DNA from: Eledone cirrhosa
Lineage: Eukaryota
Direction of reading: 5' to 3'
Length of the DNA: 64,000 bases
NCBI GenBank assembly: GCA_964016885.1
Contig: OZ024741.1
Location: 174,282,001-174,346,000, forward strand
The notes under the pieces were generated by a model. That model was not told the DNA's origin. It saw nothing but the letters and a program-made list of their open reading frames with translations, and did no database searches. A program made the position numbers and the translations under genes. Below are positions 9,965 to 55,258 of the stretch, in pieces; positions within the stretch are counted from its first letter, which is position 1, and every line of letters starts with the position of its first letter.

Positions 9965-10350
9965 GTAACAATTTATAGGTGTTGGCCCTAAAGAGGGCCT
10001 TTGAACGTTCACTTTGAAATATCTCTGCGGCGGTGCTGCCAGCAAAGACGAATCCGATGGTAACAATTTAAAGTTGGTGGCCCTAAAGAGGGCCTTGGAT
10101 CATTCACTCTTAAAAGTCTCAGCGGCGGTGCTGCCAGCAAAGATGAATCCGATGATAACAATTTAAAGTTGGTGGCCCTGAAGAGGACCTTTTAACGTTC
10201 ACTTTGAAATATCTCAGCGGTGGTGCTGCCAGCAAAGATGAATCCGATGGTAACAATTTAAACTTGGTGGCCCTGAAGAGGGCCTTGGATCGTTCACTCT
10301 TAAAAGTCCCAGCGGCAGAGCTGTCAGCAAAGACGACTCCGATTAGAGGT
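9965..10350 (+). repeat. 95 bp x4 tandem repeat inside the Helitron
   Basis: Unit starts at 9965, 10060, 10155, 10250. Confidence 0.9.
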
Positions 10351-14377: not shown

Positions 14378-14597
14378 AAAGGAAATGTGGTAAGGAACCA
14401 GGTGGACCATAACACACTAAAGTACCCAATACTTAGGGTAGTAGAGTGGGTAATAGGAACGAGTAGGACCCCGACGGCTGAGCTCAAGCCGTTTCGACGG
14501 CTAATTCTGGACTTTAAAAAAAAAAAAATTTTTTTTTTTTTACTCCAGAAATTGCCGTCGAAACGGCTTGAGCTCAGCCGTCGGGGTCCTACTCGTT

Positions 14598-14600
<3 letters not shown>
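14378..14600 (-). mobile_element. PLE pseudo-LTR end fragment with fold-back
   Basis: Homologous to 35535-35670. 14455-14600 is a palindrome around an A/T run and carries only the 3' half of the hammerhead. Confidence 0.75.
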
Positions 14601-17744: not shown

Positions 17745-19361
17745 AAAATAAAATAACAGGAGGTTGGACTGGTGTAAATCCTTGAAAGGTTTATTATACT
17801 ATGATCATTTCAATGACCGGGTTCCATATGAATCCGGTGATATCATCAGGTATTGGAATATAACAAAGGAATATGTAAAAAACCATGGCTCCGAAAAATC
17901 AGAGACAGAGACAGAGAGGATGACCGACCAACTAGCTGCCTTTACCTCGGCCAGTCGTCCTCAAAGTGGTGGCAACTGAATCCACTATGACCATCCAGTG
18001 AGGGGGCGAAGGCTTATAATGCACTACCACCTCTCCATCAAAGAAAAAGGGGAAGAAAGAAAGGAAGGAAGAAAGAAGAAAAAAGGGAGAAAGAAGTCAG
18101 CGTAAGAGTCACACTACATTCATGCTAGAAAATGCCGCGAAAAAAATGCTACTCCAAAGAATCTATAATGAGTGTCTGTATGGTCTAATGTGTGAACCGA
18201 AGATTGGAACGTTAAACTAAAAATTAAAAATATTAAATTGCAAAATGATAAATTGAAAAATAAATTATTAGAAAATTAAAGGTTAAGTAAGCGAGATTTA
18301 TTTAATGAACTTACGGAGAGAGTCTTATATGAAAAAATTAATCTCGATAAGATATTAGGATGGGATATAGAGTAAAGATTTCGATTGCGAGTCCCAGCCA
18401 GCACCCCAAAAGAATATTAGTAAATCACACATGAGGGGTTTATTTACGTGCCAGTAGAGGCATGATACAGCTAATAGTTATGCCTAAACCTGGAGTTTAT
18501 AGGTATAAGTATAATATGGCGGCCAAAACAGGCGGCACGGTGGGACCGGGGCAAAGCAAGCCGCTCCGAGTAATTTTGTTTACCGAAAGAGGAGAAATTT
18601 ATTTTTCTGAGCACTCAAAGAAGGCTGAACTTTCCAAGTGCCCAGCGTGCAGCCGGGAAAAGCCACCACATAAGTCGAAGGTAGCAACCCAATGAAAAGT
18701 GCAAATAGACCATAATTATTTTAAAGTCCCAGTTAGTCCGGGTTATAAGTAGTGTGGTTCTTAGGTGGGTAGGGGGCTATGAAAGGTGCATAATGACCTG
18801 AGTAAGGAAAGTTACAAAAAAATAATAAAAGCAGGATACAAAGATAAAATACAAATATAAGGATAGAATACATTGATAAAAATACATTAATAAAATAATA
18901 AAAAATTAATAAAGGTAAATAACTAGGGATGTAGAAAGACGGAAGTATATAAGAACGTATCGGAGGAATCACAGTGTAGGGGAAATACAATATAGATCAA
19001 GTTGTAGTAAGATAATACAGGTTGTACATATAGATATAGAGGATGGAGGAGATGGAATGGTAACATGTTGTACCTAGTGTAAAGTTTGGGTTTCCGAATT
19101 CAGTATGAGTCACAAAAAGTCCTGAGGTATAGAGTCAAGAATTCAGTCAATACAATACATGTTTTAGTATAATATGTAGAGTTTTGTCGGAATCGGAATC
19201 ATCCCGACAAGGAAGTAGTATCGGGTGGCGGTAGATAAAGCACAGAGCAGCCAAAATCCGAATGGTAAGTAGATCAGTTAATCCCATCCTGGCAATAGCT
19301 GTACACTGAAGTCAGTGCCGCTGTTCAATATTACATTTTGAAGTGCTCAACATTTTGGAGC

Positions 19362-19370
<9 letters not shown>
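17745..19370 (-). mobile_element. Probable PLE 3' UTR / pseudo-LTR remnant between (TA)n runs
   Basis: Ends with a hammerhead followed by AATAAA; no convincing ORF; family not assignable. Confidence 0.45.
17796..17853 (-). ncRNA. Type I hammerhead ribozyme motif
   Basis: AUAC-CUGAUGA-stem II (ACCGG/CCGGU)-GAAA-UGAUCA-UA|GUAU, immediately followed by AAUAAA. Confidence 0.7.
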
Positions 19371-19397
<27 letters not shown>

Positions 19398-19459
19398 AGT
19401 TATATATATATATAATATGGGTAATATATATATATATATGTGGGTTATATATATATATA

Positions 19460-21680
19460 AGCGAATTAATAAGTAAGGCATGCAAGGAAGCCACAGACAT
19501 AGTCATCAATGTCCCCTCACCCAATGATCTCAAATTAAGACCTATAATAGCAGGCCCCGCTTGCGAAACCCACCGCCTTAGCAACTTCATTGATACCCTT
19601 GTCAAGCCTTTTCTCAAACACATCAAAAGCTATATAAGGGACGACCTAGATATGCTCATTCACCTCCTTAATATGCCCCTTTCTGAACAAACCCTACTAG
19701 TGACGTTCGATGTAGTCAACCTATACTCCAACATCCCCACAACCTAGGAATAGAAGCTATCCAATTCTGGCTGGATAATTACCACAATGAACTCCCACAA
19801 TGCATCAAAAAAGAATTTGTGATCGAGGGACTCAAATTTATCTTGGAGAACAATTACTTCGTTTTCAATAACAAATCCTACAGGCAGAAATCTGGGACCG
19901 CTATGGGAACGAAAACAGCCCCCACTTATGCCAACCAAGTCATGGGATACCTGGAAATCACCCTCTACACTAAAGTACTAAACAAATTTGGAAACACTCT
20001 CCACTTACACATAGTAAAGAACTGGAAGCGATATCTAGATGACTGCTTCATCCTTTGGCACGAAAACATCGAGAAACTTAAAGAATTTCACACCCTTATA
20101 AATGGGCTCAACACGAATATTAACTTTACGATGGAATACAGCCATCAACAACTCCCCTTCCTCGACATCCTCATTAAGATTCATAACAAAAAAATAGAAA
20201 CAGACATATACTACAAGCCCACAGACTCGAAGCAATATCTTCCTTTCAACTCTTGCCACCCTAGACACGTTAAAATTAATATTCCCTACAACTTAGCCAA
20301 TAAAATTAGTCTCCAATAAAAACACCTGTTACTTACGGCTACAAGAACTAAAGGACACACTCATAGGCAGGGACTACCCTGCATCACTAATTGACAATGG
20401 AATCCAACGTGCCCTAAAACTCAGTACCCAGGACCTTAGACACCCTAAAGTAAATCAACCGAAACTAAAAGCTCTTCCATACATCTCCACACACAACCCC
20501 TCAACAATGAGGCCTTTGACACCATCCTCCAGAACATCCCTGTATTGAAAAAGGACCATAGAATGAACCAAATTCTACGAACACACGATATCATAAAGAG
20601 CAAAAGACAATCCAAGTCAATGAAAAACATCTTAACACATGCCAAAGTACTGCCAACCACAACAACGAAACCCACAGTAAAAAAATGCGATAGACCCAAC
20701 TGTGGCATATGCATCAACCTAATAGAGGGTTCGGAATTCTATTTCAAAGAAGGACAACGTTTTATAGTAAAACACAATTTCACATACGCATCAGAAAATC
20801 TAATATATGTATTAACTTGCTCAGGTTGTCGAGAAATATACATAGGCCAGACCAAAAACAGCCTCCGCCAACGCATGACCGTCCATAGATCCCAAATTAA
20901 AATACGGGAATACAGGAAAATACCACTGAGTGAACACATTGATACCTGTGCCGCCCAAAATCATCCCACCTTTAGAATCTTTCCCCTCTACAAATTTAAA
21001 GATAATGCCACCCACACCCAGCGCATCAGCAAGGAATCTCACTTTAACAAATACGGACCCCGTCTAAACACTTCTCCCTAGGATGAACCCACAACATACA
21101 CACGTCAACATACATACCTACATCAGCATACATCCTACATACATCTCTATCCACATATACACACAATGACATACGTAAACACACATGTTCTATGGTGCAA
21201 CACAAATATACACAAATTTGCATACCTTTTGATGTCTATAGATATAAACGTGCCGACACACACACATGCATTGCACACTGATGGGCACATATATATCTGT
21301 ACACAAGTATTCCAATACGGCAGGGCCTAATGGATTCCCCTTGCAGTACGTACAATCTGGGCATTCACACACACCTTGGTGTTATGACAATACTATATAT
21401 AATTTCACCCCTTTTATTATTAATGTTTTTTGATGTTCTTTTGAGAGAATCGTTTTTTGCAAATTACTGAAAATATCGAATAATGTACACCATTTTTACC
21501 AGTATCACAAAAATACTGGTCCACCCACACACGCGTACACTAACATACAAACAGACATATACACACACACTTCTCCGTATAAGACAAGAGCTGAAAAATA
21601 TCTTTCAACATGTTAAAATATCCCCACACACGTACAGACACATTCCTACTGACCGAATCCCTCTACCACGAATCACTCTG

Positions 21681-28079: not shown

Positions 28080-29879
28080 TTCGTTTCTGAATTTGTTTAG
28101 CAAGATTCTTTAAATCCATCCCTAGAAATGTTTCTCTTAGAATCTCCCGCCTATCGTCCAACCAACAAACCTTCAAAGAACATGCCGAGTATTATGATGA
28201 TGCACTTAGGAAAGCCGGTCACCTAGATAATATAGAGTATATAGTCAATGATCACCAAAACACCCAAAATAAATCACATAGGAGTAGAAATAGCACAGAA
28301 TCACCACCATACATACACTACCGCAATAGACACAATAATAGTCGCACACCACCAAACAGAAGGCGATGTAAGGAGTATATCTGGTACAACCCGGTCTATA
28401 ACAAATCTATTAAAACCAATCTACCCTCAAAATTCTTTCGATTAGTTAGAAAACACTTTCCAACATCACATAAATATAATAAAATCTTAAACCCTAACAC
28501 CATCCGGCTTTCATATTCAACCGCCCCTAATATTGAACAACATATAAAAATGCTTAACGCAAAACGGTTGTATAAACGCCTTCCAACACATAACAATACA
28601 CGTAAAACATTAGCTATAACATCACAAAACAACAAACAACATCCTGTTCTACATAAGCAACCTCATCAACCCATCCATGGCAATACAACAACGCAAAATT
28701 GTAATTGCAACTGTGTCCAACCAGGAATGTGTCCGTTGAACAACCAGTGTCTTGAACGCAACATCGTATACAAATGTACTATCGAATCGGATAGACAGAA
28801 GTGGTACTATGTGGGATCTACAGCCACCTCCTTTAAATCACGCCTTTATAGACATCGTTATTCGATAAAACATGAAAACCAGCGTTATGTAACAACACTC
28901 GCAGACAAGGCTTGGCAGCTGCGTGAAAATAACCAACATTTTCACCTAAAATGGGATATAATAGCGACTGCCCCCCCATATTCCAATGGACAGGAATTTT
29001 GTAGATTATGTAATGTAGAATTATTTTGTATTATGAAATCCAAAAACATTTTATTAAATAACAGAATAGAGCGATCGTTATACTGTAACCATCGCTTAAA
29101 ATCTACATTTTCATATTATAAATACTACCAGGATTGAACGCCTGTCTCTATCCCCGTTTGATTGTCAAAATAGATATGAACATTCTTTATTAGTCTTAAT
29201 TCTATCAACTCTTCTATTATTTACCTTTTAATACAAACTGCTATAGATAAAATGAGATTTCTGATTTTTTGATTCAATTCCCTAGAGCAAATACCAGCTG
29301 ACCACTAGCATTGATGTTATTTAGTAGCAATCGAAATCTCCCCCTTCCCCAATTGACACTTTATGATTAATACTACTGCACCAAATGACCAGCCCTGTCC
29401 ACTGTCCAGTTGGTCAAGTAGAGATTAAAATCGGCACCCCCAAAATTCTTATTTAGATTTACTCATGGTATTCTCATTAAAAACCCATTATATACTTGTT
29501 TAGCAGTAAATTATTTTACCATCTGTCATATTCTATCCCCTCTGTTCCTTCCTCTTTTACTAATATAAATACTTCAATTTTTCTGATTTTATCCAGTTTA
29601 TCCAAAATCTCTGAAGAAGTGACAACTGATTATACATTTGCTATCGAATACTTGCTAACATTATATGATTACGCAAGCAGCGATACATAGGTATTCGGTC
29701 TGTTACAGAAACATATGTCAATACCTAATAAATTCCTTTTTTAACAAAAGCACTTTCATTTTATATTCATCCTTTCTACATTTCTCCGGAATATAATTTA
29801 TACTCGTTGAGCAAACCTGCACGTACGCTGTTCATCTCTAACGTAACGATATATTATCACTACATTATTGATAACCTGA

Positions 29880-33992: not shown

Positions 33993-35290
33993 CATCATCA
34001 TCATCATCACCGTTTTACATCCGTTCTTCCACGCTAGCATGCTTTTTGGCCTTGATTGACTCCTCCACCTTACTGTTCCACCACCACGTTACTCTCCTCC
34101 TGCCTATAGGTCTGCTCCAGTCACAGACTTCATCTGCCGCCTTCAGCAGGTTAGCTTTCAGGAATTCCCACTGTTTCTCTATATTGTACGACTCTAATTG
34201 CTCTTCCTTACTGTCAAAAGCATCAAGTAATATGCTTTTAAATTTATTATTGGCTGTGGGGTCCTTTAGCTTCCATATTTTTCTCCTGGGGATAGTCCCC
34301 CTCTGTTGTCGAGTACGTCTTGTCCTGACTATGAGGTCGCTGACTATGAGTCTATGTTGGGAGGTGCATTCTTCATGGGGGAGGGATTTAGTGTTTACAA
34401 CAGACACTCTATCACGTCTTCTGGTAAGGATATAATCTATCTGACTGGCGTGTTCCCCTGATCTATAGGTGATCAAGTGATTGTCTCGTTTTTTGAAGTT
34501 AGTGTTACAGATAGTTAGGTTATTTGCGTCACAGAATTCCAGGATTCTGGAGCCTTCCTCATTTCTAGTACCAAACCCTACAGCCTCCATGGTTCCGTCA
34601 TAGCCATCACAATGTTGTCCAACGTGACCATTTAGGTCGCAAGCAATAATTATGTAGTCACTGTCGGTTATTTGGGAGGTAGTGAGCATCAATGTCTCAT
34701 AGAATGTCTTTTATAACACCAGGCAGCCCGGATTGGGGTGCGTACGCAGATATTACTGTCACAGTAGTTCTATTTAGGACAAGTCTTATTTTAATTATTC
34801 TGTCGTTCACTCTATTTACGTCTATTATCTTATCTACCCATTTTTCTGCTAACATGATTCCTACCCCACCCAGCCCATTGTCATTTCTCACCCAGAAAAG
34901 CTTATAGCATCGTTTTTTACCCACAATGAATCTAGCAGACCCACCCCTCCACCTGGTCTCTTGGATACAGCAACATCAACCTCCTTACGCTCAAGCATTT
35001 CTACAACCTCGTTAGAGCGACCTTTTAAGGTGCCTACATTCATGGTACCAACTCTGAAGTTTTGGGTTGCGTTTGGTGGGTGGGAATGGTGGGGCGCGGG
35101 GAGGGGTGAGGGAGATGGGGTTGGGGTTATGTTGGCCATCCGCGGCCGAAATAAGGAGGAGGAGTCCTTGCCTTTTCGTCCAGCAGCATGAGGTGAATTT
35201 GTCTTTATCTTTGGCATTGTCACTGAGTGTCCAGATTTTTCAGACTCTCCAGAATTCCATAGTCCATCCATCATAGCGAAAGGCAACCAG
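33990..35290 (-). mobile_element. RTE LINE 5' half (APE endonuclease) fused to the (ATG)n 3' tail
   Basis: GTMNVGTL, ISAYAPQ, CDLNGHVG, SQIDYIL, SQHRLIV, TWWWN, then CATGCTAGCGTGGAAGAACGG..(ATG)n. Confidence 0.85.
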
Positions 35291-35615
35291 AAGAAGTGAT
35301 AGCATAGGCCGCTGACTTATGATTGGTCCAAATAATAATGGTGGCGAGTGGGGGCGGGTGGGAGGGGTATGGGGTAGTTAGCGAGAAGGTTTAAATAGAA
35401 TCCTTGAATTTTGGGTATAATTGGACAAGCATATAACAGTAATAAGCGAATAATTATGGGATTTTAAAATACAAGAAGATTATTTAGAACAACCAGACAG
35501 AATTACAGAATAGCATTGAGAAAGAGCAAACAAAGGAATTGTGGTAAGGAACCAGATGGACCATAACACACCAGAGTACTCAATACTTAGGGTAGTAGAG
35601 TGGGAAATAGGAAAA

Positions 35616-35722
35616 AGTATGACCCCGACGGCAGAGCTCAAGCCGTTTCGACGGCTATTTCTGGACTAAATTAGAATTTTTAGCCTGGTGAATAAATAGC
35701 CGAACTTGTCAAGGGGGTACTT
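35616..35722 (-). ncRNA. Type I hammerhead, U3-A8 core variant
   Basis: CCCC-UUGACAA-G..CGGCUAUUU/AAAUAGCCG..C-GAAA-CGGC uugagcucu GCCG-UC|GGGG. Confidence 0.75.
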
Positions 35723-38671
35723 CCTTATATGGGAAGATTGTAGTTGTCAAGAGGATCGGTTAAAATTTGTTGTAAACACAAATAAGTCTATCATGGCATT
35801 TGGTGGGAGGTAGGGGTGGCTGAACTTGCCTGTAGAACAATAGGGGAGTGAGTGGAGCGGTCAAGTATTGAAAGTGATATGTATACAGCAGATTCTAAGG
35901 ATAGTGTATGAACTGGAGGAGGGAGGTTGTAGAATAGGTAAATCAAATGAGAGTAGGAGACAATAAAATATAATAGAAAGAAATAAAAAATATATATAAA
36001 ATTAGAAAGTGAGAAATGAATAAAAAAAAGTCCTTCGAAAACAGCATTTGTAATGTTTCCTCCGAGCATAAGTTACACGGACGGCGTCCTCCCGTGTAAG
36101 AGTTAGCTCTGGACAGTAAGCTCCAAGTGAGATTGTAGGTTATATTATTATCTTGGAGGTCCCAGATATGGCCCGAAAGTGTAGTGGCATGTCGCCGGAC
36201 CGGGTTTCGGAAAGTATGTCAGTGTTGGTAGAGCCGGGCTTTGAAGTCACACACGGTTAATCCTATATAAGCTTTGTTGGAGGTGTCCGTCCTCATGTTG
36301 CACTGGTAGATCACGTTACGTTCTCAGTATTTGTTGTTGAGGGGGCACGTAGATCTATCAGGGCAGTTACATCCCCTAGACCCAGACTCCCTACTTCACA
36401 CTGAAGGACCATAAATCCGACTTCGACCGCAAACCATCCATTAGGCTTATAAACCTAACGAAGTCGGACATAGGGAGAATCAGTAAAAAGATCCTAGACC
36501 GAGTTATACCAAAAGTTAAGCAAAACGTGAGACTTAGCCTATAGGTCAGCACCCAGGAAGTAATCTCATGGTTCAGGAATATGGAGGACAAACGAGACAC
36601 AAAATTCATCCAGTTTGACATAGAGAGTTACTATGCATCTATTACCTTACCGCTCCTTACGGCCACCTTGGACTTTGCCGAAACACTCACACCCATCACT
36701 GACCAGGAAAGAAATATTCTCCACGCCAGGAAAACAGTCCTACTTTTCGACAACTCTAAGGGTATAAAGAGAGCTCCCGACTCCCCCTTCGACGTCAGTA
36801 TGGGCGCGACGGATTCGGCCGAGGTCACAGATCTTATAGGATTATTCCGAAATGTTTCCTGCATTCGGCGGTGGATTGTACCGGGATGATGGGCTCCTCA
36901 CCCTCAATGGGTACAACCCCAGTAGTACAGACCGGGTCCGTAAACAACTAATCAACTTTTTCCGGGATTGGGGATTTAAAATCACCCTACAAACGTCCCT
37001 AACCCGAGTCAATTTCCTGGACGTTATCCTTAACCTCGAAAATGATCTGTACTACCCATACAGGAAACCAAACGACAACCTGCACTACATCCACTACCGC
37101 TCTAACCATCCTAGAAACATCACCAATAACCTGGTTAAAAACATCTCCCTCGCATATCTCGTTTGTCCGCTAATGTGCAGATATTCGACGAACACGCACC
37201 TCATTACAACCAGGCCCTCAAGCGGAGTGGTTTCCGGGAGGAAATATCCTTTTATCCAGCTTCCCTTAGCGGAACCAGCAGGCGACACCGCCGCTCATGC
37301 AACGTAACGTGGTTCAATCCTCCCCATAATGCCGAGGTGGCAACACCTATCAGGAAAATCTTCTTTAGACTCCTCGAAAAACACTTCCCACTACAACACC
37401 GCTACCACAACATAATCAACAAAAACACCATCAAACTCTCCTACAGCACCACATCTAACTTCGCAGAAAACATTGTTTCCTCAAACAACAAAAATCTCAA
37501 CCCCTATGGAAGAAATAACCTAGACATCAGTGGAGAGCCGACCAGGAGGTGTAACTGCCCTGATAGATCTACGTGCCCCCTCAACAACAAATGCCGAGAA
37601 CGTAACGTGATCTACCAGTGCAATGTGAGGACGGACACCTCCAACAAAGCTTATATAGGATTAACCGCGTGTGACTTCAAGACCCAGCTCTACCAACACC
37701 GACATACTTTCCGAAACCCGGTCCGGCGACATGCCACTACACTTTCGGGCCATATCTGGGACCTCCAAGATAATAATATAACCTACAATCTCACTTGGAG
37801 CTTACTGTCCAGAGCTAACTCTTACACGGGAGGAAACCGTCCGTGTAACTTATGCTCGGAGGAAACATTACAAATGCTGTTTTCGAAGGACCAACTCCTA
37901 AACAAGAAAGACGAACTGGTAACCACATTCAAACACAGATTGCGTAGGACTTACCTCGCCCTTAAACCCCATAACGACCCGGGTGGGTAGACAAGGGCTG
38001 ATACCCCCCCACACACACACTTGCCGAATAAGTTAGGGGAAAGCCCAGCTTACATAGGTAGATGTATCTCTTTTCTTTTCCTCTTTGTCTTCTTCTTCCC
38101 CCTGTCTCATCCTATCACTTCATTCTACCCCCTATTTTCTTCCTCGTTTGCTTTTCCCCTTTCGCCTACCCCGATGCAGCCCACGGGCCTCTGTAGCATC
38201 AGTTCCCCCACCCCTGTAATTTTAAGATAGAATTGGCCGAATACGTTTTACTAACTACTTATAGCAGATGTGTTAAACCCCTTTAATTTGTATCAGTTTT
38301 GTAATTTCTACAAGTTTTTTCTATTCTCAACTTATTAACCTGTAATTATAAGATAGCATTGTGATTTTTTTTATTCATTTCTCACTTTCTAATTTTATAT
38401 ATATTTTTTATTTCTTTCTAGTATCTTTTATTGTCTCCTACTCTCATTTGATTTACCTATTCTATAACCTCCCTCCTCCACTTCATACACTATCCTTAGA
38501 ATCTGCTGTATACATATCACTTTCAATGCTTGACCGCTCCACTCACTCCCCTATTGTTCTACAGCCAAGTTCAGCCACCCCTACCTCCCACCAAATGCCA
38601 TGATAGACTTATTTGTGTTTACAACAAATTTTAACCAATCCTCTTGACAGCTACAATCTTCCCATATAAGG

Positions 38672-38778
38672 AAGTACCCCCTTGACAAGTTCGGCTATTT
38701 ATTCATCAGGCTAAAAATTCTAATTTAGTCCAGAAATAGCCGTCGAAACGGCTTGAGCTCTGCCGTCGGAGTCATACT
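38672..38778 (+). ncRNA. Type I hammerhead, U3-A8 core variant (3' pseudo-LTR)
   Basis: UUGACAA at 38682-38688, GAAA at 38745-38748, GUC triplet at 38765-38767; one stem I mismatch. Confidence 0.7.
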
Positions 38779-38782
38779 TTTT

Positions 38783-38844
<62 letters not shown>

Positions 38845-38850
<6 letters not shown>

Positions 38851-39737
38851 GCGGGCGATATTTGTTCGCAAGATTACTGTCTAGGAAAAAATAACACAGT
38901 AGTTTTATTTTTTAAGATATATTTATCAAACTTGGGTCAGTTTGTCTTCATGACTTGTTCTTTCGATCTCACTCGATAAACCCGCCATTGGCTTTGATGA
39001 CGGCCTCAAGGCGGCTTCGGAACCGGCTACAGGCCTTCGTCACTGTCCCCCGACTTAGGCCCCTAAAGGCACTTGTGATCCAGGCCTTCAGATCGTCTTT
39101 CATATTGCAGCTAGATCTGTTGGTGTCTCGTTCCACTGCGCCCCACACAAAGAAGTCGAGGGGGTTGCAGTCAGGCGAGCTGGGAGGCCAGATGTCAGGT
39201 TAAGTGTGGTCGACGAAGTTCTCTGACAACCAGGCTTGGGTCTTTCGGCTGATATGGCAGGGCGCTGAGTCTTGCTGCCACATGTACGGCCTACCTGCAG
39301 CTACCTGGTCGATCCAGGGCTTTACTACCTCGCTCAGAACGCAGATGTTGCCATCGGTGTCCAGCCTGAGGCCTTCAGGGAAGAAGTGAGGTGGCATGAC
39401 ATCACCTTGACTGCTGACGACACCTAAGACCAATGTTATCGCTGGAAACTTTGTCTGCATGACTCTGGGCACGTCTTTGGATGAGACAGCAAGCCACCTG
39501 TTGTTCTGGGAGTTGATCTTCTGGTCTTATTTGACCTCCTGGCGTGGATTCCAAGAAGAACTCTGTGTCTCTTCCACAAATTTGGAGGTTCAAAATTATT
39601 CATAATCAATTATTCTGAAAATAAATAATGGAAATATAGTCACTGTTTTTTATGAAGACAAGAGTGACAATGGAAGTAAAATAAATTTGCATAAAATTAG
39701 CAGCTGAAAATTGCGAACAAATATTGTCCGCACCCTG
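38845..39737 (-). mobile_element. Internally deleted DD37D (maT) mariner
   Basis: TIRs (C)AGGGTGCGGxCxATATTTGTTCGCAA with TA flanks; WQQDSAPCH...WPPSSPDCNPLDFFVWG. Confidence 0.9.
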
Positions 39738-40269
39738 TATATACACATATATACATATATATATATACATATTATACATATATATATGTAAGCACCAAGC
39801 CCACACTGTAAAGTGGAAATGTAAAAGACATGGCAAAAGGAACCCAGCCCACACTGTAAATGTGTTTGGTATTAGGAAGGGCATCCAGCCGTAGAAAACC
39901 AGCCAGAAACACCCCTATATGAGCGAGACATGGTCATCTGACCCAACTTGCCTCTAAATGGGACCCGTCTTACCCATGCAAGCATGGAAGATAGACATTA
40001 ATTGATAATGATGATGATATATTCTTAGAAAATGTATGAAAATAACTGTAACCACAGTCAATTGCTTTAAATAACAGCTTGGAAAATCAGATAAAATACC
40101 TTGATAAACATAAAAAAATGACCAGCAGCCACTATGAAGAATTGAATTCTGTACCTCTCAAATTCCAGTTAAGCACTCTTTACCATTCAGCTAAACAACC
40201 CTTGACCATTATATACATATATGTGTGTATGTTTGTGTGTGTATATATATAATATATATATATATAATA

Positions 40270-41293
40270 TTATAAAGCTGAGTGTCATGTGTATTATGTA
40301 TGTATCCTACACACCTCCCTATAGTTTCTTAGCTTTACTCTCTCCATCGCTCTTCCCTCTCTCTATAATAGATCATTCCCCCTCTCCATAATTTAACTGC
40401 TTTACTCTCTCTGTCGCTCTTCACTCTCAAATATTATAAAACTGAGTGTCTTCTTTTTCTCTCTGTCCCTCTTTCACCCTCTCTATAATTTAACTGGTTT
40501 ACTCTCTGTCTCTCTTCACTCTCTATATGACAACACTCTTTTACTTTCCGGAGCGTGGTATGTATGTTTATTTCAAAAGGATAACCTCCTTCAAATTCGG
40601 TCAACACACAAGCAGGTAATACATACATCAAAAGGCAACCCTCTGAGAGAGACAGAGAGTGAAAGAGACAGATTAGGAAAACTACACACACACACACACA
40701 TCTAAAGAGAGAGAGGCGATAGAGAGAGAGACAGGGAAAGAGAAACAGAGGGACGGGTAAGAAGGTAATACATACATCTAACATCATTTGGATACAAATA
40801 TCATAATATAATGGTTGCAGAACGAAAATACAGACAAATATAATGTATGTATCCCACACACTTTTTCTGTAGTCGCTCGCATACATAACACACACACAAA
40901 TACACATACTTTCACACCTGATTTCACCCGGCTAGGTATACCTGCCCCCACCACTCCACTGCAAAGATACCACACACCCTCCCGTGTCACATTGTCCTTC
41001 CGACTCTCTCACTCTCACTCTCTCTCACTGAATAACAGTTTAATTGTATCTCTCTCTGTCTAATGGCCTATCTCTCTCTTCTTTCCCCTCCCTTTGTTTT
41101 TCTGTCGTCGCTCGCATAAGTAACACACACACACACACAAATACATATACTTTCTGTCATCGCTCGCATAAGTAACACAGACACACACACATACACACAC
41201 ATAATATAACATCAAAACAAAACACACAGACACACACATGCACATACACACATACACAAACACACATACACAAACACACACACATCTATACTT

Positions 41294-41326
<33 letters not shown>

Positions 41327-41423
41327 GATCATTCCCCCTCTCTATAATTTAACTGCTTTACTCTCTCTGTCGCTCTTCCCTCTCTATATGGCAACACTGT
41401 TTTAGTTTCCGTATCTCCCTTCA

Positions 41424-41468
<45 letters not shown>

Positions 41469-41588
41469 AGAGAGCGAGAGAGAGAGTCGGAAGGAAAATT
41501 TGACACGAGAGGGTGTGTGTGGTATCTTTGCAGTGGAATGGTGGGGGCAGGTATACCTAGCCGGGCGCCAGCCGGACGGGCCAGCTAG
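40270..41588 (+). mobile_element. Non-autonomous Helitron-like element, microsatellite-rich
   Basis: 5' TATAAAGCTG as in the other copies; 3' CCGGGCGCCAGCCGG hairpin then CTAG|T at 41585-41588. Confidence 0.6.
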
Positions 41589-42393
41589 TATATATATATA
41601 TAGAGAGAGAGAGAGAGGGGGGGGGATAGAGAGGGGGGTAGAGAGAGAGGGAGAGAGAGAGAGAAAGGGATATATAAGATGAAGAAATTTAAGACATTTC
41701 ATTTGTATTACACAAATGTTAATAGGAAAAGAGATGAAAAAAAGGAAATGGTGAAAGACTCGCTCAAGCTCTATTATAAGTAATATGTCTATAGGGAATT
41801 TCGCTTTATCCCTTAATTTCTTTCAATTCAGCATCTTCAGAGACTTCATAAAAATATACAAAAATATAGGTAAAAAGACAATTTCAAGAAAATATCTCAA
41901 CAATTTCATGATATCTGGAATATACCATACTCCAAAGAGGCATCATAACTAGACACTAAGTTAAAATAATTGTTTCTACTTTTGACACAAGGCCAGCAAT
42001 TATTCCAGTGCATTACTGGTGCTTTATTTTATCGACCCCGTAAGTATACGTTAACCTCAGTGAGATTTGAACTCAGAACATAAAGGGACGTAACTCTATG
42101 CTGCAAAGCATGACGTTCGACCTTCTATCGATACTGCCAATCCACTGCCTTTTAAGTTTAAATAATAATAATTCTTTCTAATAACAATGCCATTATACTT
42201 AACTGAATGTGAGATTTATAGGAAGCGAGGAGAATGTATATCATAATATATGAATATATGATACTGTATTTTAGAATGACAAGCTTACATAGAATATTAA
42301 ATTAGTTAATTTCTATATACTAAATAAATAATGAGTTTGAAATAATATTAGTATATTCACCTGAACTTTTTTTACCTTTACTTTATATATATA

Positions 42394-43265
42394 CTAGCTA
42401 GCTCATCCGGCTGGCGCCCAGCTAGCTTTACCGGCATTTTATCTTTTCAGGAATCCCCCCCTCACTCCAGTGCAAAGAAACCGCACGCCCTCTCAAGTCA
42501 GCGATGGGGGAGGGGCGTTACGTGCTCTGGTGTTGGGTTTGAATAGTTTTTAGGATTCCCCAGTTTAGCAACCAGTACGTTAAAGAAAATTGATAGTTAC
42601 AACAATAAATGTTGAACAGAGAACAAATTTTTTAACAAACTTTACAATAATTTGTACAACCATAATGAAAATTCCAAGTAACAGAAAATACATAAATTAC
42701 ATTGTTAGAGCCTCAGAGTATACAATATTTTTTGTTCGGCCCTCGGGAGCAAAGATGAAGAGATTAACAATGACAATAAGCCGTCTGTGCTTTCGTATAA
42801 ATATGATTGTTTATATTTTGTTTTTGTGTATGCAAAAATATCTGTACACGAATATATAATTATATATATATATATATTAAAATAATAGATTAAAGTTTAA
42901 GGAAAGAATCGGTGCTTTCACCATTAACGGGATCTTCTGAAACTAAAAAAAATCAATCTGTGAACGCAGAAGTAAATATTTTGAAAAACGTTGCAACCAA
43001 AAGAAAACAGGAAGATGATACTTTCGTTCGTGAAGACGTTAGGAATGTTGTATAACTGGAAGTGTTGACATTTGAAAATTTTAAAGAAGTGACTATTTAA
43101 ATAAACGATAAAATATCTTTAATCTTTTAACAAAATTTAGTAGACAGAAATACCCTCACTTTCTTGGAAAAAGTTACATCTATGGTGCAAATTTGGTGCT
43201 GTTTGGTTCAGGCGTTTGGCGAAAAGTTTGTTGCATACATACGGCCGTCAGCTTAATAGTATAAT
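42394..43265 (-). mobile_element. Non-autonomous Helitron (uninterrupted relative of 23153-25630)
   Basis: Reverse complement of 23155-23540, 25115-25218 and 25436-25630; 3' hairpin and CTAG at 42394. Confidence 0.8.
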
Positions 43266-43750
43266 ATACCTTACACTGTAAAGTTATGTTGGTATCACAA
43301 AAACATCCAGCCCACACTTTAAAGTAGTCTTGTAGGAGTCACAACAAAAAGCACCCAGCACACACTGTAAATGTGGTTGGCATTAGGAAGGGCATCCAGC
43401 CATAGAAATCTAGCCAGAAACAGTCCTATATGAGTGAGACATGGTCACCCGACCCAACTTGTCACTAATGGGACAACCCATCTAACCCATGCTAGCATGG
43501 AAAATGGACATTAAATGATGATGATGATATATGTATATATATCAGAAAGTTATTTGTCTCTAATATATACAGACATCTCAATGAAAAGATAAAATATCAA
43601 CTCAGAGAAGCAATTAAGCATATTAAATTTCGGCCAAAATCTAGATTTGGGGTGATATAAGACAAACTAAAATAAGTCAGTTTTACTCATATACTATTCC
43701 CAACTGCATGTCTGGAATTAAAAAACAATATTAATTATTTCAATAGATTA

Positions 43751-43810
43751 AAGTGGGTATGTTTAGGAAGCTGTACAATGCAAGTACAGCTTCCTAAGTA
43801 TGCCCACTTT
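43751..43810. repeat. Hairpin with ~27 bp arms
   Basis: AAAGTGGGTATGTTTAGGAAGCTGTAC / GTACAGCTTCCTAAGTATGCCCACTTT; the host repeat's 3' end is shared with 8925-8955. Confidence 0.85.
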
Positions 43811-43850
43811 TCACTTTCATATTCCACAATGCTTCAAGCAAACTATTACG

Positions 43851-43888
<38 letters not shown>

Positions 43889-45181
43889 GAAAAGTATAGA
43901 AATTATTGTAGCAAGAAGCCAACAGCATTCCATAATATATAAGTGACTATAGCGTCAAAATGGGAAAATAGTTAACGTAAGATGTGGGAAAAATAATTCA
44001 AACTCAATTAAAAAAGAATCACGATTTATCCAACAGAATTTAGTGAAATCCAGGGAAAAGTCAATAGAGCCTTAACTCACGATAAAATAAAGTCTAAAAT
44101 ACTCATCCTTCAATTTGGAACAACTACAAATGCTCTGTATAGTCTTGAAAAGACTATTTCACGAAAACTTTCAGTGGGGATGGTCACGGTTGGAATTCGA
44201 TCCTCAGCAGAGCTCAACATGATAACCAAAATCTCACTGATTAATATGCCAAAAAGGGAATTTAAAAGCATGCTAGTTTAACATCATGCGTGATTATGAA
44301 AATAAAACGCACAAGTGGAAAAACAGCGCCGGTGACATCAGAATGAGACGAATGTTTGTTTACATGAAACAACAGTCAAAAACATTCCGAAAAAAACTCT
44401 ACAATAAGGAGTTCAGCAAAAAGCAATGGCTGTTGAAAGCTTTCTTTTTAAAAACGTTTTTTTTTAAAAACGTTCTTGCTACAGGTTCTTTCTTTTTCTT
44501 TTTCCTTTTCTTTTTGAAATATGTATGGCGGAGTGTATCCTAAGGCTGTGTCCTACTAATGTTACGCTAAATATCCCCATGATTTGTTTTTTAAAAAAAT
44601 TCCCACAAAACATTATTTATGATGAATGCCGCATACAGCATAATTGCGGGTATGTACCTGACCGATGTAGACTAAGGCGCCTATAGACTAAGGCGCCTAT
44701 GGGCAATGGAGACGTCAAAGTGATACCAGCCGTTCCAGATAACAGCCCCTCTCCCACCACAGTAGTAATTCTGATACATGAAGAAATGTTGATTGACAGG
44801 TGGAGAACGAGAAGAATCAAGAAGTGGGCAACCATGAGTGGCTAGAAATACCAGTGACGTGTACAATTCTTGACCACACATGTAATGACAACAACAGGAT
44901 CTAAATCAACAAACGAAGAAATTCGATGTTAAAGGACAATAGGAAAATATGCTTCGTAGAATCGAGACGTATCCGACGACCGCGCGATTTCAGAGTCAGG
45001 TTTCATCACCATATCGATCGTGCCTCGAGCTGGTCGCTCGAGAAACATTTGTAATATGTCCAATAAATTCCTTTCGTCGTTACACTGATTCTCTTTTTTC
45101 TGTGATATCATACTCTGCACTACGAGGGCATTGAGTGCTCATACGGCCTTCCGCATACGGACGCTTTAAGCATCCAACACC

Positions 45182-45235
<54 letters not shown>

Positions 45236-45414
45236 TAAAATAACAGATTAAAGTTTAAGCAAAGAATCGGCTCTACGGTTCTTATATATCTGATATATGT
45301 ATTATCCTTATCGAGCCCTCTTTGGATTTTAGTCTTCAAATTTATTATTATTACTATATATATATATATATATGTACATATATATATGTCAGTTCCACCA
45401 CTATATATATAACG

Positions 45415-46252
45415 AAGGAGTTGTGGTAAGGAACCAGATGGACCATAACACACCAGAGTACTCAATACTTAGGGTAGTAGAGTGGGTAATAGGAAAATGT
45501 ATGACCCTGATGGCAGAGCTCAAGCCGTTTCGACGGCTATTTCTGGACTAAATTTGAATTTTTAGCGTGGTAAATAAATAGCCGAACTTTTCAAGGGGTA
45601 CTTCCTTATATGGGAAGATTGTAGTTGTCAAGAGGATTGGTCAAAATTTGTTGTAAACACAATTAAGTCTATCATGGCAGTGGGTGGTTGGTGGGGGTGG
45701 CTGAACTTGCCTGTAGAACAATGAGGGAGTGGGTGGAGCTGGTCAAGCATTGAAAGTGTAATCTATACAGCAAATTCTAAGGATTGTGTATGAAAGTAGG
45801 CCAGAGGAAATAGGCGAAAAAGGGTTCTGGAGAAAATAGAGGCGGGACGTTATAGAAGAGGTAAATCAATTGAGATTAGGAAACAATAAAAAAAATAAGA
45901 GAAAGATATATAAAAATATAAAATTGGAGAGTAAGAAGTGATAAAAAAAAAACTGTGGAGTCTAAAACAGCTGCTATAATTAGTTGGTGTTGCTTTTTCG
46001 GCCAATGCTATAGAATAGGTTAATAAGTTGAGAATAGAAGATACTAAATAAGAATTTTTGAAATTATAGAATTGGGTAGTAAAAGTAATACAAAATCTCT
46101 GGGGTCTAACACAGCTGCTATGATTAGTTAGAATTGCCTTTTCGGTCAATGCTATCTTTAATTTACTAGAGCGGGGGTACTGAGGCTACAGAGGCCCAAT
46201 GGGCTGCCTCAGGTAGGCGAAAGGGGAAATAGCCGTTGGGGTCATACATTTT

Positions 46253-46256
<4 letters not shown>
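45415..46256 (-). mobile_element. Solo pseudo-LTR related to the 35530-38786 PLE
   Basis: Colinear with 35535-35910 and rc ~38150-38460; no ORF. Confidence 0.8.
45498..45602 (-). ncRNA. Hammerhead U3-A8 variant, decayed copy
   Basis: Core UUGAAAA retained; G-to-A changes weaken stems I and III. Confidence 0.55.
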
Positions 46257-46537: not shown

Positions 46538-47530
46538 GTATGTATATATATATAAATATATATAAATCTTCTCAGGTATCCCTATTTCCCTATATGTATA
46601 CATATACATATATATAAATCTTCTTAGGTATCCCTATGTCCCCAATTGCAAATTTTCTGCTCGCAACTATTGCTGTATTTATCACTTCGCTAGCTACCAC
46701 AACACATTTATTTTGTTACCCTCATTTTCTCTTACCATGCTGCCTCTCTATCTGTCTATTTTTCCATCAAAGGCTACAGGCCATGACTGGCTATTATCCC
46801 GCCGAGGTTGACTTACATCCTTACGGGGTCGATAAAATAAAGTACCAGTAATGCACTGGGTAATTGCTGGCCTTGTACCTAAAGTAGAAACAATTATTAT
46901 TGTAGCTGTATTCATTTCTATTGGTTATCTTGCCATGCTGTATTCTATCGGTTATTTTGATAGCCATAACGGCGACCCTCTCTCTATGATGGCTACCCCC
47001 CCTCTCTTTATGATGGCTACCCTCTCTCTATATCTCTCTCTATCTATCTCTAAGCCACCTATTACCTTCCTTTCCCTCTTCATACATTCCTCCTCACTCA
47101 TCTTGAAGTTATTGAAGAGATAAGACACACTCTACTCTGAAAGGCTAAAATGAATCACTAGAGTTGATTTAGCTACGTTCCAGCCATCCATCCATACAAA
47201 TCTTCTTAGGTATCCCTGTCTATTTTTCCATCAAAGGCTACAGGCCATGACTGGCTATTATTATTATTGTAGCTGTATTCATTTCTATCGGTTATCTTGC
47301 CATGCTGTATTCACTTCTATCGGTTATTTTGATAGCCATGACTGGCTGCCTACCTCACAATTTCCCTCACACCACCATAGCCTATTCGACCAATCAAACC
47401 TCAGCATGCCATTTCTTCTACTACTACTACTACTACCTAACTCTCTCCTCCCCCGTCCCAGCCCAACACACCCTGCCATTATTACCACCACCACTGTTTT
47501 TCTAGCCCTGAAATTTTCCTACCGTTATGT

Positions 47531-50500
47531 ATGGATGAGCTGAGAATAAATTGGAGCAACTCTGAATCAATAGATGAAATGAATATGAATCTGCGAGCTA
47601 CCAAGCACCCATGTGAAGCCCCAATCCAGAGAGAGGAAGCACACACACACCCCTGCAAAAATCAACCCTTCCCTACGAGTGTCGACAAATGCCCAAAACT
47701 CCGAGTTGGTACCATCAATGTAAGCACGATGAAAGGAAGAGCAGGAGAAATCGTAGAGATGCTAGAGCGAAAGGAAATTGATGTATGCTGTGTGCAAGAG
47801 ACTAGATGGAGAGGAGAGTCTGCTAGAGTCCTTGTAGGAAAAAGTCAGTGCTACAAATTTTTCTGGGTGGGAAGTGACGATGAGATGGGTGGTGTAGGTA
47901 TACTACTAGCTGACAAGTGGGTAGATAAAGTAATCTCAGTGTACAGGGTAAATGCAAGAATCATTAAACTCAGACTAGTCCTGAATAAAACAATTACCAC
48001 AATAATATCAGCTTACGCACCCCAATCAGGGTTGCCAGACGAACTTAAGGATAGATTTTACGAGTCCCTAATGCACACTACTGCTATAACAAACGACAAT
48101 GACTTCCTAATCATCGCAGGAGATTTTAATGGACACGTAGGTAAACACTGTGACGGCTTCAATAGAGTCCATGGAGGCCACGGGGTTGGCACAAGAAATG
48201 AGGAAGGATTCAGACTTATAGAATTCTGCGACATGTCGATATGTAACACAAACTTCAAAAAACCCGACAACCACCTGATCACCTATAGATCAGAGGAGCA
48301 TTCTAGTCAGATAGATTTTATCCTCATCAGAGGACGTGACAGATGGACGGTCGTAAACACAAAAGCCTACCCTAGTGAGGAATGTACCTCTCAACATAGC
48401 TTAGTTGTCAGCGACCTCACGGTCAGAACTAGACGAACCTGGAAACAGAGGCCAACCTGGAAAGAAAGATCTGGAAGCTGAAAGACCCCTCAGCCAGTAA
48501 CAGATTTAAAGATATTTTACTCAACGCCTACGACAGTAAAGAAGAACAGATATAGACATTCAATGTAGAAGAGCACTGGGAGTTCCTAAAAAATAACTTA
48601 CTAGAGGCGACGGATGAGGTCTGTGGCTGGAGTAAGACCACAAGCAGGAGGAGAGTGACTTGGTGGTGGAACAATAAGGTAGATGAGGCAGTTAAGGCCA
48701 AGAAACAGGCATGGAAAGAATGGAAGAACAGAGGGAGCAGGGTACATTACATAGAGACCAAGAAGGAAGCTAGGCGACAAGTATACTTAGCTAGGAGGGA
48801 AGCAGAGGATAGAAAATTCAAGCATGTTTTGCAACGTGAGGACCAGAAACAGGAGGTGTTCAAGATTGCGAGGCAGTGTGTCAGAGAGAATTGTGATGTC
48901 ATTGGAGAGAAGTGTATCCGGAATGATAAAGGTGAGCTTGCCCTCACAAGTGCTGAGAAGAAAGATGTATGGAAGAGCCATTATGATAGATTACTAAATG
49001 AGGAGAATGCATGGGAAGAAGAGACTCTACCCCAAGTAGACCCTATAGAGGGGCCAGCAGTACAAGTCAGCAGCAGCGTAGTAAGTAAGGCAATCAAAGA
49101 TATGAAGATGGGGAAGGCAACCGGTCCATCGGGTATAGCTGTCGAGATGCTGAAGGCATCTGGGTCTGTAGGTCACACTATAACCACATGTATTGTTAAC
49201 CAGGTAATACTAGAAGGCGTCATACCAAAAGATTGGTGCAGTAGCATCATTGTCAACTGATAAAAAGGGAATGGTGATGTACTAGATAGAGGAAACTATA
49301 GAGGTATAAAGCTGATGGACCAGGTCATGAAAGTAACAGAAAGAGTTATAGCACAGTTGATTAGGGACCAGGTGAAGATAGATGAGATGCAATTTGGGTT
49401 TGTACCAGAAAGAGGCACCACTGATACCCTCTTCCTTGTGAGGCAGTTACAGGAAAAATACCTAGCTAAAAGTAAGCCACTCTACCTGGCATTTGTCGAT
49501 CTCGAGAAAGCCTTTGACAGACTTCCACGTGCTGTAATCTGGTGGGCTCTTAGAAAACTAGGAGTAGATGAATGGCTTGTAAAACCTGTACAAGCCATGT
49601 ATAGGGGAGCAGTCAGCAAAGTTAGGATTAGCAATGAGTATAGTGAGGAATTTAGCGTACAGGCTGGTGTCCACTGGGGCTCTGTTCTTAGCCCTCTCCT
49701 GTTCATCATAGTCCTGCAGGCAATAACAGAGGAGTTTAAGACCGGATGCCCATGGGAACTCCTGTATGCTGATGACCTCGCACTTATAGCTGAATCTATG
49801 GTAGAACTAAAGAAATTCCAAACTTGGAAGCAGGGACTAGAAAGAAAGGGTCTCAAAGTCAACATGACAAAGACTAAGGTCCTTGTAAGTAGATGAGAAA
49901 ACAGAACCCAGATCCCCTCAGGGAAATGGCCTTGCTCAGTATGTAGGAAAGGTGTAGGTAGGAACTCCATTCTCTGCCCCAAATGCAAACAATGGGTACA
50001 CAAGAGATGTAACGGGATCTCAGGAAGCTTAATTAAGAATGTAGGCTTCACATGTAGCAGCTGTGCTGGGACAGCAAGCAGCAAACAGCCACAGGAAACA
50101 AGTACCACCAATCTCTGGGAGGGCTCTGTAGAAACAGTAGACAGCTTCTGCTGCCTAGGTGACCGAATTAGCAGCGGAGGTGGGTGTTCAGAAAGTACAA
50201 TAACTAGGGTAAGAATGGGATGGAAGAAGTTCAGGAAACTACTGCCACTGCTAGCTGTAAAAGGCTTCTCCCTCAAAATCAAAGGCAGACTGTATGATGC
50301 GTGTATCCGAACAGCAATGTTACATGGTAGTGAGACCTGGGCGCTGAAGGTGGAAGACTTACGTAGATTAGAAAGAAACGAAGCCTGCATGCTCCGATGG
50401 ATGTGTAATAGTAATATACGCGAACGACAAAGCATAAGTGAATTGAGAGAGAGACTGAGCATAAGAGGAATCAAATGTTGTGTGCAGGAGAGGCGGTTTC

Positions 50501-50750
50501 GTTGGTATGGACATGTGATGCGTATGAAGGATGACAGCTGCATAAAAGGTGCAGAGCACTAGAAGTCAATGGAAACCGTGGAGTGGGGAGACCCAAGAAG
50601 ACCTGGGATGAGGTGATAAAAGCCGACCTTACCCAATTACACCTCTCAAAGGCGATGACACATGACCGTGACCTCTGGCGTCACGCAGTAATACAGAGTA
50701 CCCGACCTCCCATGGGTACAAGCTGAAGCATATAGACAATATGCCTCCAC
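47531..50750 (+). mobile_element. Near full-length RTE LINE pseudogene (APE + RT + PHD-like finger)
   Basis: GTINVSTM, CVQETRW, SAYAPQ, GDFNGHVG, QFGFVP, AFVDLEKAFD, GSVLSPLLF, YADDL, LHGSETW, FRWYGHV; several stops and frameshifts. Confidence 0.95.
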
Positions 50751-54245: not shown

Positions 54246-55258
54246 GATATTTCTATTCAGTGGTTGTTTAGCTCAAATGTACAGAGCCCTCATCTGGAAT
54301 TTGAAAGGTACAGAGTTTGATTCTCTGTAGCAACTGCTGACCAATGATTTTCTATCTATAGGTGTATTTCATCTAATTTTCTAAGGTACTATTTAAAGTA
54401 ATCGACTGCGTTTACAGTTATTTTCTACATTTGACATTGTCTCCATTTTCTAAGAATATATATATTACTGACAGATCCGCCTGTGACCTCTGTATCATGC
54501 ATTAATTTCTCCCTCCACCTTTTGAGATCTTTTCACTTGCTGCAAGGGAATCAGTCCTCTTTCTTGACCGATGCATCACGTATTAATTCCTCCCTCCACC
54601 TATAGAGATTTTCTCACTTGCTACAAACACACCTGGAAAAGGTTCATTCCATGAGGTGTTCCTTGAGAAGCTGGTGTGCCTCACAACAATGTTGCACATA
54701 TAATGTACAATTGTCGCATACAGACCAGCGAAACTGTACAGTCGGGACTTCGAAGAAAAAATAGGTATATATCTGTGTCTATTATTTCCTCTTATTTTAT
54801 AACTTTATATATATATATAACACTGTAAATGTGGTTGGTGTTGGGAAGGGTATCCAGCTATAAAAACCCCGGCCAAATTTACAGTCCCGGTGGAGCAAGG
54901 TACGGCGTGGCCAATTCTAGCCAGACTTGTCTCTCAGCGCGGACGACCCGTCTGACCCATGCAAGCATGGAAAATAAGACATTAAATGGTGGTGATGATG
55001 ATGATGATATAGATATATTACTGACAGATGTAAACATTGGTGAGAAAACCAATAAACCAGTGCTTTCAAACAAAAATACCCAGCAGTATTTGTTGAATGC
55101 AAGTTATGCCAACACTCCCTTGACACTCTCATCATTGGAAATACAGTGAATCACTGGCTGGCATGTTACAAACATATAACCAACAACAACACTACTGGTC
55201 ACTAAATGCATGAAATAGAATAGAATAAACATAAAAGGAGTTTAAAGAAACTACTCAC

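Follow-up and report, generated by a model that had tools for sequence, protein, structure and literature searches.

Copy ends accumulate at the predicted cut site of a long-stem U3-A8 hammerhead in a Penelope-like retroelement of Eledone cirrhosa

Hammerhead motifs are known from several Penelope-like retroelements (PLEs). The nearest parallel to the locus described here is found in the Cercyon PLEs of Schistosoma mansoni, where type I hammerheads in the PLE repeat combine a U3-A8 core pair (~1,300 matches) with a stem I of 4-5 base pairs (bp), a conserved G10.1-C11.1 pair and a palindromic loop III, and occur as opposite-strand pairs (Cervera and De la Pena, 2014; PMC4209133). One minimal S. 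mansoni hammerhead was tested in that work and was inactive as a monomer. PLEs of the Hydra clade are diagnosed by RW[KR] and DKT motifs, a CxCX5C linker and, at the C terminus, an endonuclease of the GIY-YIG type with CxxC and CxH (Craig et al., 2021; PMC8557442). In the Poseidon PLE of the anole Anolis carolinensis (PAc), two internal reverse-transcription start sites, shown in vitro, define the tail, a hammerhead lies upstream and the main template is uncut (Frangieh et al., 2024; PMC11167929). The first of these papers speaks of an "absence of in vivo evidence" for PLE hammerheads, and the second calls their function unclear. In vivo cleavage by PLE hammerheads, and the reason for their retention, is the question on which the locus bears. 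Our starting point is a 64,000-nucleotide (nt) stretch of the genome of Eledone cirrhosa (GCA_964016885.1, contig OZ024741.1, positions 174,282,001 to 174,346,000), hereafter the window, in which an earlier note had marked three hammerhead copies.

We find that the motif is a type I hammerhead in the terminal (3') repeat of a high-copy Hydra-clade PLE. Two features are new here: the 5' ends of copies form a peak, one base wide, at the predicted scissile bond, often with two arms head to head, and stem II is a domain of 56 nt, most sampled copies ending in its 3' arm. The truncated copies that start exactly at the cut site likely record weak self-cleavage in living cells, as far as genomic sequence can tell.

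All three motifs lie where they had been marked (Table 1), and a generic search for hammerheads, run over the window on either strand, returns copy 1. This copy consists of a 4-bp stem I, the core UUGACAA, the 56-nt stem II domain, GAAA, stem III and a GUC cleavage triplet (C17 = 35627). Three helices surround the core, the structure is open at stem I, and U4, G5, A6, N7, A9, G12, A13, A14, the A15.1-U16.1 pair and H17 are in place. The 3-8 pair is Watson-Crick (U3-A8) in the window; it is not in the sister grades with C3.A8 (1,607 copies) and U3.G8 (67). Stem III, proposed earlier to be a real helix with a palindromic loop, is indeed one: A15.1-U16.1 and four further base pairs close a 9-nt loop that contains a 6-nt palindrome and is conserved across relatives. 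With a helix III of 5 bp (hairpin -4.8 kcal/mol) and this loop, the motif is not a minimal, dimer-only PLE hammerhead, in which helix III has 0-2 bp. The "very long stem II" holds as a 56-nt domain and fails as a single helix, since G10.1-C11.1 is followed by a U.U mismatch and a bulge, then by ~9 bp, an internal loop and 7 bp that close a loop of 8 nt. Stem I runs for 4 bp before it meets an internal loop, and stem II for 1-2 bp before a bulge. Of 200 shuffles of copy 1, 199 fold less well than the copy itself (z = -2.7), and copies 2 and 3 carry the stem mismatches ascribed to them (stem I in copy 2; stems I and III in copy 3). Copies 1 and 2 are not independent, because they are the two arms of one insertion (98% complementary). 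An Rfam scan gave no hammerhead family among 144 matches at E <= 1, the remainder being hairpin and microsatellite noise.

The motif shares with Cercyon the features listed above. The Cercyon stem II has 7-8 bp and stem III is minimal, whereas here stem II is a 56-nt domain with an internal loop, stem III has 5 bp and a palindromic loop of 9 nt, and A9 is followed by G10.1 with no additional base. Hydra-clade PLEs resemble the element in their protein motifs, (TA)n targeting, 5'-inverted copies and tail, but all 26 rows for this clade in File S2 of PMC8557442 have a canonical CUGANGA core with a stem II of 3-7 bp, and their tail measures 30-40 bp against ~80 nt here. Hydra-1_Obim of that paper is a different family, and a short stem II motif searched for in its supplement was not found. 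The three features of PAc named above probably recur here; PAc differs in its C3-G8 pair, in cleavage in vitro only with protein and, in the account given in PMC11167929, in the lack of RNA-seq ends at the cut site, where genomic copy ends accumulate in our family. Fungal and protist PLE hammerheads with a large helix III likewise have a monomer-competent stem III, but their elements lack the endonuclease and are telomeric (PMC4209133). Among natural core variants, U3-A8 is a covariant reported to be active in vitro; stem II, unlike ours, is described as commonly short (Perreault et al., 2011; PMC3088659). Taken by itself, the change to U3-A8 is already known, and the view of it as rare or novel gives way to that covariant and to the ~1,300 Schistosoma hammerheads in print. 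The long-stem architecture, a C3.A8 grade and copy ends at a PLE cut site were not found in the literature searched, a provisional statement that covers PMC4209133 and PMC11167929 apart from their supplements.

In about seven loci among the 30 tail copies listed first and read by eye, an arm began at the predicted cut or beside it. We give counts of genome pattern matches with two mismatches directly before a given base, offset 0 being the first base after the cut. Offset 0 has 1,685 matches; 30 inspected comprised 17 clear junctions, 2 ambiguous ones and 11 decayed read-through copies. At offset -1 (455 matches), 9 of 20 inspected were blunt head-to-head joins, which are counted as offset 0 because both arms end at the site. 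Some 14 of the 20 inspected at offset +1 (813 matches) were G-run deletions, decay or microhomology. Offset -3 has only 94 matches, 18 of 20 inspected being junctions, many by microhomology. Read-through copies number 49,334 matches.

The height of the peak varies among subfamilies, and the bases around the site are nearly identical in all of them. We use letters for the subfamilies: A is the window's, B, C and D are the youngest and carry U3-A8, as does C2, and E1 carries C3.A8. Among 100 site rows listed, from the class with A or C and then A or T before the site, hand counting gave 24 B/C, 8 D, 7 E1+C2 and 3 A; 100 read-through rows listed gave 41, 15, 19 and 24, respectively, and the 94 offset -3 rows 13, 5, 42 and 22. 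From these hand counts the peak is estimated at ~2.0% in B/C and ~1.8% in D, and A differs from the youngest B/C peak (Fisher p = 0.013, hand-counted listings). A direct count for A gave 85 matches, 23 of 30 inspected being real, or ~0.55% of an estimated 11,800; for the E1 (C3.A8) tail class it gave 36 matches, 29 of 30 real, or 0.67% of 5,209 read-through copies. Contamination of this C3.A8 tail class by the U3-A8 subfamily C2 was considered and rejected: another diagnostic base is present in 8 of 8 additional C2 tails, and of the 30 read-through loci the 3 that bear a core all have C3.A8. In 5 distinct A loci and in ~14 of 29 E1 loci, both arms stop at the site or no more than one base away from it, with few extra bases between the head-to-head arms, mostly one or two. 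In the youngest U3-A8 subfamilies the peak stands ~30-fold over offset -3.

Most copies end elsewhere. Exact genome matches number 62,140 for the 3' half of the motif against ~7,180 for full cores, and 79 of 99 copies from the start of contig 1 end no more than 25 nt 5' of the stem II base, that is, in its 3' arm. Over these 99 copies the per-base stop hazard is ~0.05 in the stem II 3' arm and at most 0.007 beyond it. The stop is common to tail-bearing (38 copies) and short-end (44 copies) arms and is therefore set by position, not by the length copied. Most copies are foldback palindromes. The window holds one such core-less stub at 14375-14600, overlooked in the earlier note along with the short arm at 46226-46256; it is a product of the stem II stop. 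We rejected it as an ancestor of the motif, since it consists of two truncated arms and has the commonest insertion form. Its near-perfect foldback gives a strong false Rfam match to a microRNA (miRNA) family (MIR9481, E = 7e-14). A different arrangement, with stem III left out from one short direct repeat to the other, is seen at window positions 46226-46256 and at three further loci (L376, L387, L444), and suggests that the reverse transcriptase (RT) jumps across the folded hairpin.

With the window flanks fixed and the core left free, the genome gave 568 matches and a reversed control none. Among the first 100 of these listed, U3 occurs in 99, A8 in 99 and C3-G8 in none. UUGANAA is thus the subfamily consensus, as had been supposed, and CUGANGA is not. 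Exact 19-20-mers across the lineage count 5,487 U3-A8, 1,607 C3.A8, 67 U3.G8 and 21 C3-G8 copies, all lower bounds biased to young copies. Canonical CUGANGA is lacking in the window's subfamily and in all young ones and is present in the oldest relatives: 6 of 8 copies of the oldest group, H, have C3-G8, and the 46 G8 matches of the old F group divide into 15 C3 and 31 U3. We do not regard the few canonical cores of young subfamilies as an active family of their own, as they have E-type flanks and their number (21 vs 1,607) is that expected from point mutation. Divergence from consensus falls from 15% (H) to <2% (B, C, D); the 2.5% of A is biased low, as many of its rows are top matches to the window. 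An intermediate subfamily, of which a pattern search returned only 5 decayed copies, was found by DNA search.

A tree of open reading frame (ORF) ends (63 sequences, 375 columns), which is independent of the ribozyme, is a ladder of F, G, A, E3, E2 and E1, then C, D and B. On it A has U3-A8, E3, E2 and E1 have C3.A8, and C, D and B have U3-A8 (support 98/92). Monophyly of the E type (15 rows held together) was rejected (p-AU 0.00016), in a constraint test that was run after the tree was seen, with only 3 rows of F and recombination outside its scope. In a tree of the ribozyme region (90 rows, positions 3, 7 and 8 masked, root H), copies with C3-G8 and U3.G8 branch off at the base and those with U3-A8 higher up; its bootstrap is unsettled, and the searches oversampled G8 rows. 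As reconstructed from these trees, the core pair went from C3-G8 through U3.G8 to U3-A8 (the window), on to a C3.A8 mismatch and back to U3-A8. Positions 3 and 8 have thereby passed through all four pyrimidine-purine combinations, with one transition between each. Judging by copy number, the C3.A8 mismatch did not stop amplification. The reading of U3-A8 as compensatory therefore stands for the end state, in which Watson-Crick pairing is restored, and not in its strict form, given a C3.A8 grade amplified to 1,607 core copies. Variation restricted to position 7 is likewise true in the window and untrue across the lineage. Subfamily E (e.g., L135, L137 and L138) combines C3.A8 with G7 in 93 of 100 among the matches listed, and C3 could pair with G7 in a shifted register there.

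The remainder of the core has been held constant. In 17 real copies from 13 subfamilies, U4, G5, A6, A9, G10.1, G12 and A13 are identical in 17 of 17, and A14 and U16.1 are kept in at least 90%; the ORF ends fall to 63-68% amino acid identity while the core residues stay invariant. The closing pair G10.1-C11.1 is G-C in 14 of these copies and G-U in 3. Pairing holds in 87.5% of 353 cells, against 27-51% in slid controls. Both sides have changed at 6 of 21 pairs, and the covariation score was reached by none of 500 shuffles. The hammerhead fold lies 0-2.4 kcal/mol from the minimum free energy (MFE) in U3-A8 subfamilies (1.1 in A) and 0.8-4.0 in C3.A8 ones, a comparison that covers subfamilies other than H and F1. 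A dimer through loop III is computed at -23.5 kcal/mol, against -9.6 for two hairpins.

The host assignment follows from L143, a relative with a 689-amino-acid open frame that contains RWR, DKT, YRDD, CxCX5C, VIY-x-YIG, CxxC and CxH and is 89% identical to the end of the window ORF (279 amino acids). This motif set agrees with the Hydra-like PLE proposed earlier, the clade being assigned on diagnostic motifs rather than on an RT tree of named references. Pfam found no family in the ORF pieces of the element or in the L143 ORF; a protein search returned 768 homologues, mostly unnamed, the best at 38-54% identity. Each insertion has one of two possible 3' ends, ~20 and ~100 nt past the cut site. 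The long end, or tail, meets (TA)n in 167 of 180 distinct copies, as is usual for Hydra-clade insertions. The tail of insertion 1 instead adjoins a remnant, RTE-like by eye, of the endonuclease and RT of a long interspersed nuclear element (remnants at 34015-35316 on the minus strand and 47441-50562 on the plus strand). In four loci the tail runs on into the 5' leader, and the ORF starts 190 nt (three loci) or 179 nt (one locus) after the cut site. Tandem junctions of repeat, tail and 5' leader into the ORF start are seen at L008, L053, L092 and L136; in L136 the upstream hammerhead has U3, whereas its two others have C3. The family's copies occur as inverted pairs or linked to an ORF, not tandem arrays of short non-coding repeats as in non-LTR retrozymes. 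A pattern scan of metagenomes for the motif gave no matches.

The reading that we consider probable is that the motif, a hammerhead in the PLE terminal repeat, is a real but slow ribozyme that cuts few element RNAs before they are copied. Reverse transcription would begin at two fixed ends, ~20 and ~100 nt 3' of the cut, and proceed towards the hammerhead; we place the starts at the two insertion ends because two internal start sites are known in the anole PLE (PMC11167929). On uncut RNA it would pass the site and usually halt in the 3' arm of the long stem II, leaving foldback stubs. On self-cleaved RNA it would run off at the cut, and the two cDNA arms would join head to head with 0-2 extra bases. 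A cut RNA would yield only a tiny stub and a long copy would require an uncut 3' hammerhead, for which reason a weakened 3-8 pair could be tolerated. The rest of the core is probably kept so that cleavage in the upstream tandem repeat sets the mRNA 5' end ~190 nt before the start codon. Through its palindrome, loop III would permit cleavage as a dimer, but the monomer fold is stable too. A slow ribozyme agrees with the low in vitro activity of PLE hammerheads (PMC4209133) and with the uncut main template of PAc (PMC11167929).

Several observations weigh against this reading. The ~2% for the youngest subfamilies is a hand count of 100 listed rows from one chromosome. In the window's subfamily (~65 vs 22) and in E1+C2 the peak is only ~3-fold over offset -3, a baseline that microhomology inflates. 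The mismatched E1 peak (0.67%) is no lower than that of the U3-A8 subfamily of the window (~0.55%), and a catalytic origin therefore requires some residual activity of C3.A8. The low A and E1+C2 peaks speak against a simple rescue by U3-A8 and leave room for a structural stop. No tertiary contact between stems I and II was identified, contact modelling not having been done. Kinship alone can beat covariation shuffles without any structure, position 10.2-11.2 is mismatched in 13 of 17 copies, and C7 of the window's core enables a rival pairing with the 3' end of stem II, which is the MFE structure of copy 1.

The alternative that survives best, though we hold it to be unlikely, is that the fold is kept with negligible catalysis, the peak being a structural RT stop at stem I or the three-way junction, or the fold serving as a protein-binding or initiation signal. 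Persistence of the peak in C3.A8 copies fits this view, as does the passage of positions 3 and 8 through all four pyrimidine-purine combinations; the RT evidently halts at structure elsewhere, in stem II, and ribozyme mutants had no effect on insertion in vitro in the anole PLE (PMC11167929). However, the stem II stop spreads over 25 nt, whereas the peak is one base wide and falls on the canonical cut site. Frequently the two arms both stop at that point, with 0-2 extra bases, residues of the catalytic core do not vary through the lineage, and peak height differs among subfamilies despite the nearly identical bases at the site.

At the other extreme stands the strong version of the earlier note, in which the monomer is a fully active ribozyme and its U3-A8 pair strictly compensatory. 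In its favour are the stable stem III and near-MFE fold, the rank of U3-A8 as the commonest state (5,487 matches) with U3 regained after the C3.A8 grade, and the reported activity of U3-A8 in vitro (PMC3088659, citing earlier work). It is rendered very improbable by cut-site ends that make up only ~0.5-2% of read-through copies, by 1,607 C3.A8 copies across three successive subfamilies and by the low peak in the window's own subfamily. Least credible of all is that the head-to-head joins come from DNA-level deletion of palindrome centres after insertion: the foldback palindromes that make up most copies are unstable as DNA, but deletion would not account for a preference for one base, that base is also the start of single arms joined directly to (TA)n or unrelated DNA (e.g., L408, L412, L517 and L527), and the signal is strongest in the youngest subfamilies, not the oldest.

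Table 1. Features of the PLE family and related motifs in the window (window coordinates).
Feature	Position	Strand	Remarks
Insertion 1, whole	35529-38787		inverted arm, truncated ORF, 3' untranslated region (UTR), hammerhead, (TA)n
Insertion 1, tail	35529-35606	-	~80 nt, long end of inverted arm; start of the 5' leader that trails the repeat in tandem copies
Hammerhead copy 1	35616-35722	-	intact; core UUGACAA at 35712-35706; predicted cut between 35627 and 35626
Insertion 1, inverted 3' UTR (internal deletion) and ORF end	35723-36377	-	inverted repeats I2 and I3, 98% and 96% complementary
Insertion 1, 5'-truncated ORF for RT and GIY-YIG-type endonuclease, Hydra-clade PLE	36378-37990	+	frameshifts and stops; last 279 amino acids 89% identical to L143
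Insertion 1, 3' UTR / pseudo-long-terminal-repeat body	37991-38671	+	
Hammerhead copy 2 and short end	38672-38787	+	joined to (TA)n
Hammerhead copy 2	38672-38778	+	core 38682-38688; C17 = 38767; stem I mismatch at 38770
Insertion 2, long arm	45411-46222	-	tail, hammerhead copy 3, 3' UTR
Hammerhead copy 3	45498-45602	-	core UUGAAAA; mismatches in stems I and III
Insertion 2, short arm	46226-46256	+	stem II end joined to 3' end, stem III skipped, then (TA)n
Foldback stub, sister subfamily	14375-14600	.	both arms end within stem II 3' strand, without catalytic 5' core; (TA)n on both sides; fold z = -24
Second repeat family, U3-A8 hammerhead-like motif	54655-54750	+	60-nt stem II domain, palindromic stem III

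By its motif, the long-stem U3-A8 architecture recurs in a second repeat family of the window. U3-A8 is present in 27 of 30 of its relatives, there are 1,314 first-look candidates, and the family has no obvious DNA likeness to the main one; 2 of 30 loci have Hydra-type ORF pieces with 33-42% identity to L143. The MFE structure of the window copy is not a hammerhead fold (z = 0.37). Elsewhere in the window, canonical minimal hammerheads (CUGAAGA, 6-bp stem II) lie at 27735 on the plus strand and 46439 on the minus strand and probably belong to another PLE. An ORF at 28091-29137, within inverted arms, has a Hydra-like look. A broken ORF at 19310-21081 (plus strand) with RT (Pfam RVT_1, E = 0.0015) and GIY-YIG (E = 1.6e-5) matches represents a different PLE type. 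At 9959-10289 (minus strand) there is a 95-bp tandem repeat with weak matches to the histone 3' stem-loop (E 0.0009-0.004, under the gathering score).

More broadly, and tentatively, since we would put its chances somewhat short of even, the truncated copies may amount to a fossil in vivo cleavage assay in which peak height per subfamily tracks the stepwise walk of the core through C-G, U.G, U-A, C.A and U-A. Selection would hold the ribozyme at low activity, as cut RNA gives no full copy; C.A would keep some activity; and stem II would act as a brake that makes most insertions short foldback stubs, tens of thousands of them. Such stubs could be misannotated as miRNA precursors or as miniature inverted-repeat transposable elements and, if transcribed, could give rise to double-stranded RNA. 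This architecture escapes standard descriptors and Rfam and is shared by a second family in the window, so hammerheads are probably undercounted in such genomes. The lineage supplies natural, near-isogenic core variants (C-G, U.G, U-A and C.A) on one scaffold for a comparison of rates. If the one-base peak is cleavage, a good genome assembly reads out the past activity of the ribozyme, subfamily by subfamily, without RNA.

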